Source of the DNA: a virus
Taxonomy: Duplodnaviria > Heunggongvirae > Uroviricota > Caudoviricetes
DNA length: 50,852 bases
Virus record (IMG/VR): IMGVR_UViG_2690315827_000001
Strand: one strand, 5' to 3'
Numbering within the stretch: the first letter of the stretch is position 1; each line of letters opens with the position of its first letter. Of the stretch, positions 3,001 to 9,000 are shown in pieces. Position numbers: made by a program.

Positions 3001-6000
3001 AAAGGACCACCACATTGCGGCGAAGTTTTCCCCTGCGTACCGGTGCCCGTGACACCACTTCTTCTTTCAGCACATTCGCACCCGCACGGGTTGCCTCACG
3101 CAGCACCCGGTTATTTTCCGCACCACTCAGAAGCTGCAAATGCGGCTGATGTCCTCCAGCCCCGAAAAATCCAGCAGGGTTTCGATCATTTTTCCCTCCC
3201 AGCCGACAGAGAATTTCCAGACGCCCGCCGGTTGCATCCGGAACCGGGACCCGACGACTTCAGGACATGGTCACGCCAGGGACCACTCAGCACATGAAGT
3301 CGTGACGCCGCCGTGATTTCACGACCAGACTGACCGCGTACCCAGATGCGGATTTCCGCCTGCGCCATTTCCGCACCGGACTGCATCCGCTCCCGGCTGC
3401 TCCTGCCCCGGATATCCGCATGAATTTTCCCGCATGACACCATTCTTCCGTCATTTCTCCGGCAGCATTACGGGTTAACACCGGGTTCAGAACACTGATC
3501 ATCTGTGTCAGACGACCTGCAGATATTGCCATTCCCCTCCTCATAACACCGTCGGACAACGCAAATCGTAAATCAGCACGGAAACAGAAAACGGCAGTTC
3601 CCCTGCACGAGGTCTTCCCGCTCAGCAAGATCCGGATTCCGGTACAGCATCCCGGTCAGTCGCATGGCAGCCCCCTTCATCCGGGTTAATGCCTCACCAG
3701 GGATCAGCTCACCGTCCACTAATCACTTTATCCCGGCTGCCCTGGATGTAGGCCAGCAGCACGGCGGTAGCCTGACGAACCTTGTCCATCAGCATCTCAT
3801 CATCCGCGTCATGGTCAACACGCAGATGTGCCTTGATTTCTTCCAGTGTCAGTAATGCTGTCACTTTCCACCTCCTGCATCCCGCCACGTTTTGCAGCCA
3901 GAGTCCAGCCTGATGAATGAGCTTCTCCGGGCTTATCACCGGTCATACTGTTGCAGTGCCACAACGAGCCCCACGTCACCGTATCGCCGGGGTGGTAAGT
4001 TTCGCCGATTCTGAACACACCACGGTAGAGCATCACCGGCAGGGAAAATGTTTTTTCCGTACGCTGGCCACTGCTCTGCCGGACCACCAGAGAGACCGTT
4101 CACCCGTCATGCTGACGTCAATATCCGCCACCCCGTCAACCAGGCATTCCCATCCCCGCATCCCGTACGTTTTTTCATACGCCGCCAGAGTCCACCCTGG
4201 TGTGTGGCATACGAGCCCCGGGGAAAGGATTTTTGATCGTCAATGGCGGGGAGTATTTCCAGTGCCGTGGCATCACGCCCGTCCTGCGGAGCCGGCAGGG
4301 CACTCACCGCCTCCAGAACCGCCTTCTGCAGAACATCCGGATCGTAGTCACGACCATCACGCGGAACAGGAATATGGCTTACCGCCTCCTTCACCATCTG
4401 TTCAAGCATCGGATGCACATCATCCGGAGTGATACTTTTACCGTCTGCCGGTACCGGTATTTTCGCGACCGCATCATTCACCGCCTTCTGCAGAACATCC
4501 GGATCGTAGTCACGACCATCACGCGGAACAGGAATATGGCTTACGCCTCCTTCACCATCTGTTCAAGCATCGATGCACATCATCCGGAGTGATACTTTAC
4601 CGTCTGCCGGTACCGGTATTTCGCGACGCATCATTCATTCTGCAGAACATCCGGAAGTCACGAAAGGAATCACTGCCTCTTTCACCATCTGCTCAAGCAT
4701 CGGACGCACATCATCCGGGGTGATACTTTTGCCGTCTGCCGGTACCGGAATATTCGCAACCGCATCATTCCTTCTGCAGAACATCCGGATCGTAGTCACG
4801 ACCGTCGCGCGGAACAGGAATATGGCTCACTGCTCTTTCACCATCTGCTCAAGCATCGGACGCACATCATCACCCGTCACGCACTTCTGTAATACCACAG
4901 ACTGAGAAGCCAGTTTTTCTTCAAACGTTTGTGCGCGGCTATTTTCTCCTCAAATGTGCGCTGTAAATCCGCCAGCACTGTGGAAAATTCTTCTCCCAGT
5001 GCACGAATAATGGACAGTTCCCGTTCCGTCATTTTCTCAGTATCCCCCTGAACATCGCTTTCACCGCATCATGCTCTGTTTCACTGATTGCCTTATTACC
5101 GTCAGATGCGCCGTCAGGCAGCTGTGATGAAACTGTTTCCCGGCAGACGCGAACGGATCCTCACGGGCATCACGACGGGACAGCGCCTCCAGACTGTAGT
5201 TCTGCTGCTGAAGATACAGTGCATCACGCCGGCCAGGGGCGGCAGGTTCTCCCGTTTACGGGCCTCATTGGGCGTGAGAAGCGTATTTTTCACCGCATCC
5301 CCAGCGTTTTCATGCGCCGCTCACTGTCCATTCTCAGCAGCGTGGTGACATCAAATTCTGTACTCTCGTTTTCCCCGTTTCCAGCGCCTCATCCAGTAAC
5401 AGTTCAATGGACTCAATCAGCGTCTGCAGGCACTGGGAATAATACTGCTGCTCCAGCGCCTCCACGTTGTCACTGGAAGGCGGTTGTCCCACGCCAATCT
5501 TGTAGGCCGGGACACGGAACACGAACAGACAATTTCAGCGGTCATCTTCAGTTGTTCCACCGTCTGCGCATCCACCGGTGAAAACGTCGTGGGGTTGTAT
5601 TTTGCCCCGTTGCTCAGAATGGCCGTTTTCCCCGCATTTTCGCCTGTATACCCGCTGTCCCAGTTGCTCTTCAGTTTTTTCGCATTTTCTTCCGTAATAC
5701 TGCCGGGGATCTCAATCACCCCGGACGGCCTGCCGCCATTTCTGAAAAAAGACGTCGAATTTTCCTGAATATGATGCCCCTGCGTGGCCGCCAGCCCGGC
5801 GGCATACACCGGCGGCAATCCTATAAGCGGATGAAAAAAACAGTTAAACCGGTCGTGGATCACTTCCCGGGCAGGCACCGTCACCGCCTCCGTGATCCCG
5901 CAGTTCCGGTCCGGCGTGATGCGGTAGAACACCTCGCCGTCATCCGCCACCAGAGGTTCAACCCGGCTCCAGTCCAGAATACGCAGTTCTTTGATCTGCC

Positions 6001-9000
6001 CCCGGGCATTACGGATTTTCAGCACCACCGTATTGCCATGACGCAGTTTGGCGTTCAGCCACAGTTCAAAAAACTGGATGCGGTTCTGCTGGGCGTTGGG
6101 ACGACGACAGAGGCGGGCAATATCCCCCGGGCGCGTTTCCCTGCGTATCCCATGCGCATCCGTCTGCATAAGACGCAGCCGCATTTTGGCGATATCCTGG
6201 GATATCAGCGAAATACATGCAAACACCGCATGAAGGAGAGGACGCTTCAGGATCGGCTTTCACGCCCTGCTGCCAGGCGCCGGAAAAGGGCTCAGCCACC
6301 GCCTGAAACAGGCTGGTCCAGCCGCCTCTCTTACGTCACGTCCTGATTTCTGGTTTTTCGGGTTCGCCGTAAAAGGTTCCACATTCGCCATGCTCCGCAT
6401 CACGTTTCTTTTTCTGACCTGCCGGACGTCGCGCTGTGATGTACTCCGCCTTCCCCAGGCGAACCAGCACCTCCGCACACGGCTGTGCACATCACGGATA
6501 TCCCCGGCCCGGGCATCATGCGTGCCCTGCAGATATCGGATCTTTGCCATAACCTGTTACGGGAGGCGCACGCCTCCCGTCCTCCTTATCAGACTCAGCC
6601 GCCGGACGCACTGCCGTAGTCACTCCGGTGATCACCGCCACCGCCGCAGTACGCGACGACGCCAGTTGATCCAGCGCTCCGCACGGATGGCCACGCTGCC
6701 TGTCTGGAACATGGAAACCAGCTCCACCGGGGACGGCGTGGTACTGTCGCCGCCCGGCTCAGACTGCATTTCCAGTGATGCCTCGCGGGACATATCCACT
6801 GCCACGCCGCCGTCATCCGCCAGATAAATATCCGGGGCATTCACCAGCACCAGCTGGTCACCCACGTACTGGGAGACAATCACCGGCAGCCCCTGGAAGG
6901 AGCCACCCAGCAGGGTCATGTCCGGGTATTCCTTCTGACCCAGCGCATTTTTACGCATGGACAGTGCCAGGGCATTGGTGCTGGACATCAGCCAGACCGC
7001 ACCGGTGGGCTGCAGGTTTGCTGCCACAAACTGTCCAAACGCAGCCTCGGCATCCGCATCCGGGTTACCGGTTGATGCCGTGCCCTTCACATCATGGGTG
7101 ATGGACGCCGGGAGACATCTGCCACTGCGGCTTTTTTCGGGTCCACAAAGTCTGTATCCAGACGCGCCACCACCGCTTCCGCCAGCGCATTACGGACCAG
7201 TGCATCAGCAGCCGGACTGGAAAAACGGATCAATTCTTCCGTCAGTACCGCAATGGCCGACACCTTCGCATGACTGAAGGTGATGGATTCAAAATCAAAC
7301 TTCGTCAGGGGTTTTGCCTTACCCTCACCCACCCAGCCGGCAGCACCGCCGGACACCTGGGCGTGCACACGGATATTGAATGGCACCTGACGAAGTGCAG
7401 GGATCCCGCCCTGACCAAATCGCCCGATAATGGTCTGCGGACGCAGGTAATCAATAAAGTCCTGTGCGTATTCCTGATATTCAGACAGGCTGCCTGCCCA
7501 CTGCGGATCCGTGGTGGTCCCGCGCCCACTGCCGATTTCAGGACATGATGCAGACGACTGTCATCCGGATACTGACGACGGGCCACTTCCAGGGCTTCAG
7601 ATCGGACGCCTTTAGCCGCAGCCAGCGATTTGGCAAAGCGGGCGAAGCCAATCCCCTTATCCAGTTTCTGCTCCACACGGATCACCGGCGCAGAAGCCAC
7701 CGCGGCCACATTCCCGTTACCGGCCTGTTTCACCGGCTGCGCCGTGGCGGCCTTACCGGCTTCCAGTTCACGCAGGCGCTTCAGGTGCGCATCCACCTGA
7801 CGGATTTCCGCTGCGGTGTTGTCGTAATGCTCTTCCTCCTCCACATCCAGCGTGCGCCCTTCCTCTGCGGCTTTGGTCATGACCTCCTCAAGGGAGGCTG
7901 CCAGCGCTGCACGCTTGTTTTCAAAACTTTTAATCTGTTCGCCAATATTCATTATGGTCTTTTCCTTATGAAAAACGGTTGTTGACTGTGCCGCAGCGCC
8001 GGCAGAAGATGCGATTTTCACCACCGGTTTCCGGTTGCCGGACGCGGCAGAAAACGGGCGGTCGTAAGATTTAATGGTCCGGATGGTGCATTCCGCATTC
8101 GCGGGCACGGTGACGGCAGACACCTCCATCAGTTCCCAGCGCAGAAAATGCAGTCCGCCTCCGTCCAGAAAGGTGTATTCATGGGGACGGAAGCCCACGG
8201 ACAGCCCCCTGACCAGCCCGGTCTTAATGGCCGCCCAGACCTCATCCAGCCGGGCAGCCAGTTGCGACGGCATATCCGGTACGGGCTTCACCAGTGTTGC
8301 CGTGATTTCCAGCCCTTCGCTGACCCGGCGCACCGTACACTGCCCCACCGGGCGGGAATGGTCATGCTGCCAGAGAAACGGGATCGCACTGCCAAACTCC
8401 GCGCCCTCCGGCTCCAGGATGTCACCATCCCGATCCGGAGAAGGCGTTGACGCAATCCCGGTGATCACCCGTTCATCCTCACTGAAGGATTTCACCGTCA
8501 GCAGGGAACAGGCCCGTTTAAGAGTCACATCAGCCTCCTGAAAATAAAAAAACCGCCGCAGCGGTTCATGATGGTTACAGTGTGAACAGGGTTATATGAA
8601 AAAAACCGCATATTCTTTCTTTTTCGGTTCCGGGTTAAGGGACATCAGGGAGACCGCATTGAACAGCGCCATCAGCGGGTCAATTTTTCCCCGTCCACTG
8701 GCCTGTTTGGTGATAAGAATGGCGTTACCTTTAGGCTCCACCCGGGCATTGCCGACACACCAGGCCATCAGGGGCTGGTCACCATGCACCAGCACCCCTT
8801 CAGCCAGTTTGCGCTCGGTGGTTTTAATGGCCCCGCCCAGTTTCCAGCCCTGGCTTATCCCCACCACAATTCCGTCGGGGATCCCGGCTTCCGCCAGTGA
8901 ATCCAGAATCTGCCCCACCCCTGACGGGTCAATACCGATATGGTCCAGTAACTCAGCCTCATGAATGCGACGCACATATTCCGCCACTTCCGCCGTGTCA

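Follow-up and report, generated by a model that had tools for sequence, protein, structure and literature searches.

Capsid-before-portal gene order in the head-morphogenesis module of Stx-type lambdoid phages and their proteobacterial relatives

Introduction

In the coliphages HK97, HK022 and mEp234 the portal gene is placed between the gene encoding the large terminase subunit (terL) and the prohead protease gene, the protease and the capsid protein are encoded by separate genes, and there is no separate scaffold gene. Their head modules also encode a gp6-like adaptor, a head closure protein and a gp10-like protein. The HNH endonuclease gene of HK97 adjoins terS (the small terminase subunit gene), and the capsid protein of this phage belongs to the Pfam family Phage_capsid. 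The present analysis concerns a head module built from the same Pfam families but in another order, identified in a 50,852-nt stretch of DNA (IMG/VR record IMGVR_UViG_2690315827_000001, Caudoviricetes), referred to here as the window. In this module, the portal gene is located downstream of the capsid gene.

The closest described systems are the Stx2c (Shiga toxin 2c) phage 2851 (Pankowvirus), phage BP-4795 (Marienburgvirus) and the CP-933-type prophages of Escherichia coli O157:H7 EDL933. Their gene content and gene order are those of the window, which differs from them only in single-base deletions and in the number of repeats within a fibre-like gene. The capsid-before-portal layout is therefore an already known and already annotated architecture in this lineage. 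A comparable arrangement, terL – capsid (1935 nt) – 168-nt open reading frame (ORF) – portal – gp6, has been found as a polycistronic RNA on a metatranscriptome contig (PMC8156552).

A first-pass annotation of the window had pointed to the unusual position of the portal gene and offered two explanations: a real rearrangement, such as a transposition of the portal gene, or a misassembly joining two similar phages.

Results

Gene order of the head module

Comparison of the window's own ORFs with Pfam revealed terS, terL, S78 protease, capsid and portal domains, all on the minus strand and in that order: Terminase_2 (positions 10249–10812), TerL_ATPase (9023–10252), TerL_nuclease (8592–9083), Peptidase_S78 (within 7305–8528), Phage_capsid (7087–7386) and Phage_portal (5417–6226, E=1e-55). 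The order given in the first-pass annotation (terS, terL, protease, capsid, a hairpin, portal, a repeat protein and gp6) was confirmed by these matches. All components typical of HK97-type modules are present, i.e. the TerL ATPase and nuclease, the portal protein (PF04860), the S78 protease (PF04586) and the capsid protein (PF05065). However, the canonical succession terL – portal – protease – capsid is replaced by terL – protease::capsid – orf57 – portal. The difference from HK97 and lambda that had been noticed earlier is real, since the HK97-like control phage mEp234 has the order terS – terL – portal – protease – major capsid protein (MCP).

As the reading frames of the window are broken, gene boundaries were taken from intact relatives and mapped back onto it (Table 1). 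The full order is HNH – terS – terL – stem-loop – protease::scaffold-like::MCP – stem-loop – orf57 – portal – fibre-like protein – gp6-like adaptor – head closure – gp10-like protein – tail genes. Compared with the HK97-type modules, the lineage of the window carries a fused protease-capsid gene and two extra genes flanking the portal gene (orf57 and the fibre-like gene).

Relatives sharing the capsid-before-portal order

The DNA segment 4900–11000 is collinear with phage 2851 (99.5% identity) and shows 97.0% DNA identity with BP-4795. Matches were found in 94 phage records, 92 of which cover at least 80% of the segment in one collinear place. The shorter segment 4900–8700 occurs in one collinear piece in 1,244 of 5,426 complete E. 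coli genomes, in up to seven copies per genome. In these records and genomes, which include the genomes of isolated phages, the two sites at which a chimeric junction had been suspected (6550–6632 and 8528–8592) are collinear at 97–99.5% identity. The annotated gene order is identical in phage 2851, BP-4795 and EDL933, from the HNH gene to the tail genes, and the first 13.7 kb of the window are 99.1% identical to an EDL933 prophage, the differences being nearly all deletions. The window thus shares with the Stx-type group of 2851 and BP-4795 both high nucleotide identity and the full synteny of the late region, and its non-canonical order, far from being peculiar to this genome, is common to its relatives.

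More distant relatives were retrieved with a profile of the fusion protein, i.e. through the capsid protein, which yielded 27 loci in contigs representing one genome per species; the head proteins of phage 2851 were then mapped onto these loci by tblastn. The protease/capsid region is followed by the portal gene in all 22 loci with enough downstream sequence. These come from alpha-, beta- and gamma-proteobacteria (Enterobacterales, Mesorhizobium, Halopseudomonas, Burkholderiaceae, Acidovorax, Candidimonas and Snodgrassella), with protein identity down to 32–48%. An upstream TerL was detected by tblastn in 20 of the 22 loci; Pfam added another (L025), L024 gave no tblastn match with terL, and the upstream TerL of L026 and of phages PAJU2 and vB_SBP9 was also confirmed by Pfam. 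The HNH gene keeps its position upstream of terS in most of the related loci.

The same order is found in isolated phages, namely Pseudomonas phage PAJU2, Stenotrophomonas phage SOVA965, Moraxella phage Mcat2 and Burkholderia phage vB_SBP9. As in the window, terL is followed by the protease/capsid region, one or two small ORFs, the portal gene, in some cases a fibre-like ORF, and the adaptor gene, although the encoded proteins are only 37–48% identical. ORF003 of PAJU2, labelled as a structural protein, carries the GenBank note “prohead protease fused capsid protein”. Separate ORFs are annotated for the protease and capsid regions of Mcat2 and SOVA965, while vB_SBP9 has separate protease and capsid genes and lacks the fibre-like gene. 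Since the order is retained in vB_SBP9, it does not depend on the fusion.

Portal proteins of the members of this clade are 42–70% identical to each other, whereas those from the sampled phage records outside the Stx group are approximately 22–30% identical, with the exception of vB_SBP9 (41.7%). The portal protein of mEp234, the only one of the sampled outside portals for which the gene order was checked, is 27.5% identical and the order is canonical. Because the arrangement is common to relatives with only 32–48% protein identity, and because the portals of the clade are closer to each other than to those found elsewhere, it is an old character of the clade that has diverged together with its genes. 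If a swap of gene blocks did occur, it would have been ancient and lineage-defining.

On this evidence we regard the locus, with a probability of roughly 0.93, as the standard head-morphogenesis module of the known long-tailed lambdoid (Stx-type) lineage represented by 2851, BP-4795 and the EDL933 prophages. The position of the portal gene downstream of the capsid gene would then be ancient and lineage-wide, and the result of neither a rearrangement nor a chimera in this sequence.

Table 1. Features of the head module and their positions in the window.
Feature	Position	Strand	Evidence and remarks
HNH endonuclease gene	11102..11466	-	Placed by the annotation of EDL933 and phage 2851; immediately precedes the terminase genes
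terS, 187 aa, intact in the window	10249..10812	-	Pfam Terminase_2, E=4.5e-8
terL, 553 aa in relatives	8592..10252	-	TerL_ATPase and TerL_nuclease matches
Terminator-like GC stem + U-run + AGGAGG	8550..8567	-	Consensus terminator scan; directly upstream of the protease-capsid start codon
Protease-capsid fusion, 645 aa in intact relatives	6595..8528	-	Pfam and phrog_617
Perfect 22-nt palindrome / stem-loop	6559..6580	-	Inverted-repeat search
orf57, conserved 73 aa, phrog_829	6331..6550	-	Intact in 2851, BP-4795 and EDL933
Portal (HK97 family), ~452 aa	about 5029..6384	-	Pfam Phage_portal
G-run at the portal/fibre junction	5044..5048	-	G5 in the window
Fibre-like repeat protein (BP-4795 ORF59 type)	3861..5032	-	phrog_1289
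gp6-like head-tail adaptor (Ad1)	3541..3864	-	Phage_connect_1 and phrog_40 on the intact homologue

Portal and orf57

The identity of the portal gene, on which the description of the order depends, was examined with the intact protein. This gave an E-value of 6e-81 with Phage_portal and matched the sequences of the solved portals 9lbn, 8cez and 6tba (annotated as HK97 family), so the portal-like product reported by the first-pass annotation is indeed a portal protein. The borders assigned to it (5290–6550) are incorrect: position 6550 is the start of the orf57 ATG codon, and the portal gene begins at approximately 6384. Nor is the short ORF of unclear nature that had been placed at about 5030–5290 a separate gene; it represents the C-terminal part of the portal protein in a shifted frame. 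In the window, the portal gene is fragmented by nine single-base deletions, including those at positions 6321, 6243, 6232, 5521, 5372, 5298, 5226 and 5135.

The orf57 gene (phrog_829, E=4e-39) overlaps the annotated start of the portal gene and is interrupted by deletions at positions 6487 and 6353 of the window. Matches with its product were found by tblastn at the same position in 19 loci (32–58% identity). Neither Pfam nor the PDB sequences gave a match, and the only homologues are E. coli proteins annotated as hypothetical. The AlphaFold2 model, based on a shallow alignment of 10 sequences, was unusable (pLDDT 52, pTM 0.14).

Protease-capsid fusion

The protease and the capsid protein, initially described as products of two genes, are encoded by a single ORF in intact relatives. 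The 645-aa protein contains Peptidase_S78 (residues 48–152) and Phage_capsid (residues 386–635) domains and matches phrog_617 from end to end. Approximately 2,500 homologues were found, and nearly all of the 120 listed are fusions of about 645 aa. An uninterrupted ORF of this size is present in all close relatives; in the window it is interrupted by one-base homopolymer deletions at 7518, 7109, 6652 and 6619. Residues His55 (in WQHD) and Ser110 (in GLSxGF) are invariant in eight sequences, which is consistent, by analogy with HK97 gp4, with their being the S78 catalytic dyad. The two domains are separated by a coiled-coil-like stretch (residues ~185–280; weak match with Osmo_CC), and no scaffold ORF is present. 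With every capsid subunit, the fused polypeptide may introduce one protease and one scaffold-like coiled coil into the prohead (1:1 ratio), after which self-cleavage would remove both segments and leave the mature capsid protein.

Stem-loops flanking the protease-capsid cistron

Directly downstream of the capsid gene, between its stop codon (TGA, 6597–6595) and the orf57 ATG (6550–6548), is a perfect palindrome composed of two fully complementary 10-nt arms (6559–6568 and 6571–6580) separated by 2 nt. It would effectively form a 9-bp stem with a 4-nt loop (ΔG about −18 kcal/mol). The 18-bp palindrome reported earlier (6561–6578) is therefore real, although larger than described. The sequence AAGGAGG abuts the stem on its 5′ side, and on its other side the stem is followed by AACAGGUUAUG, with no U-run; it was not picked up by the terminator scan. 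Thus, of the two stems flanking the cistron, only the upstream one (Table 1) has the structure of an intrinsic (rho-independent) terminator. A second short perfect palindrome, CGGTGATCACCG (6626–6637), precedes the main stem-loop by 46 nt and is part of the 3′ end of the capsid gene.

Stem-loops were tabulated as independent hairpins for each locus, the intergenic sequences being too divergent to be aligned for covariation. A GC-rich stem-loop follows the capsid stop codon at a distance of 0–17 nt in 27 of 28 loci (ΔG from −13 to −24 kcal/mol). The sequences of these stems are many and unrelated, hence it is the position and structure, and not the sequence, that is conserved. The stem of the enterobacterial loci is directly preceded by GGAG(G). 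Their core stem and the orf57 ATG downstream of it are up to ~11 nt apart (8 nt for the copies in E. coli), with no other Shine-Dalgarno-like (SD) motif in between. Distant loci have a conventional SD sequence after the stem, and in some of them (L013, L024 and L026) the stem is followed by a U-run.

In genes 38 and 25 of phage T4 the ribosome-binding site is structured, the SD sequence and the start codon being bridged by a hairpin. Folding of the enterobacterial stem would likewise give a normal SD-to-ATG spacing, and the upstream GGAGG may thereby come to lie near the start codon of orf57; the distant relatives, with their conventional SD, differ from the T4 sites in this respect. The palindrome could also be a product of chance, or a plain terminator with no role in the expression of capsid versus portal. 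Roughly one perfect hairpin with 10-bp arms is expected by chance per several tens of kb, and the window contains four perfect short-loop inverted repeats with arms of at least 10 nt, including this one. A terminator after the capsid gene is annotated in HK97-like phages, and the U-runs of the three distant loci point the same way. Chance is nevertheless excluded by the retention of the position with different stem sequences, and a plain terminator fits poorly with the absence of the U-run in the E. coli/Enterobacter clade, where GGAG(G) lies 5′ of the stem, the ATG shortly 3′ of it and no other SD is available. We therefore consider this explanation unlikely. A structured ribosome-binding site or an RNA-stability element appears to fit the stem of this clade better than a terminator.

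The upstream element, composed of a stem, a U-run and the motif (C/G)NTTTC(W)GGAG, was found in 29 of 33 related loci, including those of PAJU2, Acidovorax, Snodgrassella and Moraxella. Conservation of the motif (stem + U-run + CGTTTC(W)GGAG) extends to its nucleotides in phages of gamma- and beta-proteobacteria that share only 32–48% protein identity. It is surprising to find a terminator-like element ahead of the late gene with the highest expression. In loci L022, L026, L028, L025, L024 and L035, divergence is far greater in the terminase genes that precede the capsid cassette than in the capsid and portal genes; these terminases show 22–23% identity or no tblastn match, and the SOVA965 terminase has 967 aa. 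This divergence suggests that modules may have been exchanged at or near the conserved pre-capsid stem-loop.

Rho-independent terminators were annotated by the depositors on both sides of the protease-MCP region of mEp234, a phage of canonical order. Both types of order therefore keep a protease-capsid unit flanked by stem-loops, and the difference between them lies in the side on which the portal gene is placed.

Broken reading frames

Alignment of the segment 4900–11000 with phage 2851 revealed 16 single-base deletions in the window, all in homopolymer runs, and no insertions. Over positions 1–13698, comparison with the EDL933 prophage revealed 66 deletion events, two insertions and almost no true substitutions; 45 of the 49 single-base deletions are in runs of at least two bases. 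None of the 5,426 complete E. coli genomes carries the deletions of the window (best identity 99.5%, the reference being 19 nt longer). The ORFs of the tail, adaptor, portal, capsid and TerL proteins are all frameshifted, with tail and adaptor genes hit evenly. The terL gene is split by a one-base deletion at 9086 into ORFs of 409 and 163 aa, yet its domains (PF03354 and PF20441) were found on the window ORFs as well as on the intact protein.

Since deletions far outnumber insertions, are concentrated in homopolymers, are accompanied by almost no substitutions and are absent from complete genomes, the frameshifts are almost certainly deletion-type sequencing errors and not the result of pseudogene decay. 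O157 strains often carry lambdoid prophages that are cryptic or defective, and the portal-fibre ORF of EDL933 itself has a frameshift flagged by PGAP, so the head genes might be taken for pseudogenes of a decaying prophage in which the order is only a relic. This is very improbable in view of the technical signature of the deletions over 13.7 kb, their absence from every complete genome and their even distribution, which extends to the tail and adaptor genes.

Fibre-like protein coupled to the portal

The length of the G-run at the portal/fibre junction differs between relatives. With G5 (BP-4795 and the window as read), the two genes are separate and overlap by ATGA; with G6 (phage 2851 and EDL933) they form one fused 859-aa “portal”. 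The G5 reading of the window is not trustworthy, given its homopolymer deletion errors. A separate fibre-like gene was found in 20 of the 22 informative loci carrying it, and most distant relatives have two genes overlapping by ATGA. There is no canonical slippery heptamer at the G-run; it is speculation that a programmed −1 frameshift operates there, in which slippage on G GGG would produce the very fusion protein of phage 2851.

The fibre-like protein is composed of an N-terminal helix, 54-aa tandem repeats (a helix and PxPxDG) in variable copy number, and a conserved C-terminal domain with only sub-threshold similarity to CBM_5_12. Distant homologues contain collagen-type repeats, with Collagen above the Pfam cut-off in one of them. 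Genes of the fibre-like type are located in L002 (4746–6131), L004, L019, L024, L025 and L029. A direct-repeat search identified a repeat unit of ~162 nt in the gene, although TRF detected no tandem array in this region of the window, where indel errors blur the repeats. Strains differ in the number of repeats, which in L010 are interrupted by an N-run. A homologue search with the protein returned almost only partial entries of fused E. coli “portal” proteins.

The protein matches phrog_1289, which is labelled “portal protein”, but no Phage_portal match was obtained with the separate fibre-like proteins tested; the label has probably been carried over from the fused forms. Possible roles are those of a fibre on the head or neck and of an internal protein. 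The frameshift flagged by PGAP in the fused EDL933 ORF (L030, 3915–6499) is near the C-terminal CBM-like domain and not at the portal/fibre junction.

Other features of the window

The region 31454–50852 is 99.8% identical to EDL933, compared with 99.1% for the first 13.7 kb. The right half (~26000–50852) contains the type III effector genes espN, nleL and espK, an IS2-family element and a second tail tape-measure gene; a single-place match to at least 80% of this stretch was obtained in only two complete genomes. The GC content drops to ~30–36% between 36 and 42 kb. The matches reaching the Rfam gathering score, at 21758–21932, 17968–18134 and 44185–44250, comprise the sok antitoxin RNA (114 bits), the sRNA STnc100 (94 bits) and the sar antisense RNA (56 bits). 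No tRNA genes were found in the window.

Discussion

As mEp234-type HK97-like coliphages keep the portal gene between terL and protease, and the two layouts differ by a swap of two adjacent blocks, the order might be put down to a recent move of the portal gene, either within this prophage or within the lineage of E. coli. It is, however, highly improbable. A local transposition does not account for an order shared by relatives from the alpha-, beta- and gamma-proteobacteria with only 32–48% protein identity, nor for the clade portals being closer to each other (42–70%) than to the portals sampled elsewhere (~22–30%). A chimeric contig joining two similar phages at 6550–6632 and/or 8528–8592, conceivable in an error-prone assembly from E. 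coli O157, whose several near-identical lambdoid prophages (the segment is present in up to seven copies per genome) are a classic source of chimeras, has a negligible probability and can be considered excluded as a cause of the gene order, because 92 phage records and 1,244 finished genomes preserve collinearity across both junctions and the order recurs in unrelated genera.

Several points weigh against the view of the locus as an ordinary, ancient module of its lineage. No explicit discussion of the capsid-before-portal order was found in the searchable literature, and the related loci, having been retrieved through the capsid protein, give no measure of the frequency of the canonical order among phages with capsids of this lineage. 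Genuine differences between strains could account for some of the 2–19-nt deletions in the region of the repeats. Judged by its sequence, the post-capsid stem of the E. coli clade, which has no U-run, is not a canonical intrinsic terminator. Finally, the part assigned to the stem-loops in partitioning expression, as well as the self-processing of the fusion protein, is deduced from sequence.

The head genes, all on the same strand and either overlapping or separated by short gaps, are probably read as a single late transcript. This is suggested by the common strand, the overlaps between terS and terL (4 nt), orf57 and portal, and portal and fibre (or the fusion of the latter two), and the adjacency of the fibre and adaptor genes. 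Since the proteins act in trans, the gene order itself should not affect assembly, while their stoichiometry would need control. The flanking stem-loops may delimit a highly expressed segment of capsid mRNA that is more stable or better translated, with the upstream element stabilising the 5′ side or, being U-rich, enhancing translation, and the downstream one blocking 3′ exonucleases or causing partial termination. A capsid segment bracketed in this way would allow the capsid protein (~400 copies) to be expressed above the portal (12 copies) and the adaptors, whichever side the portal gene lies on.

A wider proposal can be put forward only tentatively, and we consider it doubtful as a whole: that the protease-capsid cistron is a discrete expression cassette, in which the brackets and not the order fix the capsid:portal stoichiometry, and that the portal is translationally coupled to a collagen-like or CBM-tipped fibre mislabelled as “portal”, with the change from G5 to G6 fusing the two in some E. 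coli phages. If true, such a bracketed cassette would explain why the portal gene occurs on either side of it in different HK97-type lineages.

For the annotation and scanning of phage genomes, a capsid gene preceding the portal gene in this family should not be read as a sign of misassembly or rearrangement, nor should the broken ORFs of the window be read as pseudogenes. The fibre-like protein appears to be systematically mislabelled as “portal protein” in PHROGs, RefSeq and PGAP, which is worth correcting. The near-universal order terL – portal – protease – capsid is not obligatory: a proteobacterial lineage that includes the medically important Stx phages works with the portal gene downstream of a self-contained protease-capsid gene, and has retained the stem-loops that bracket it.

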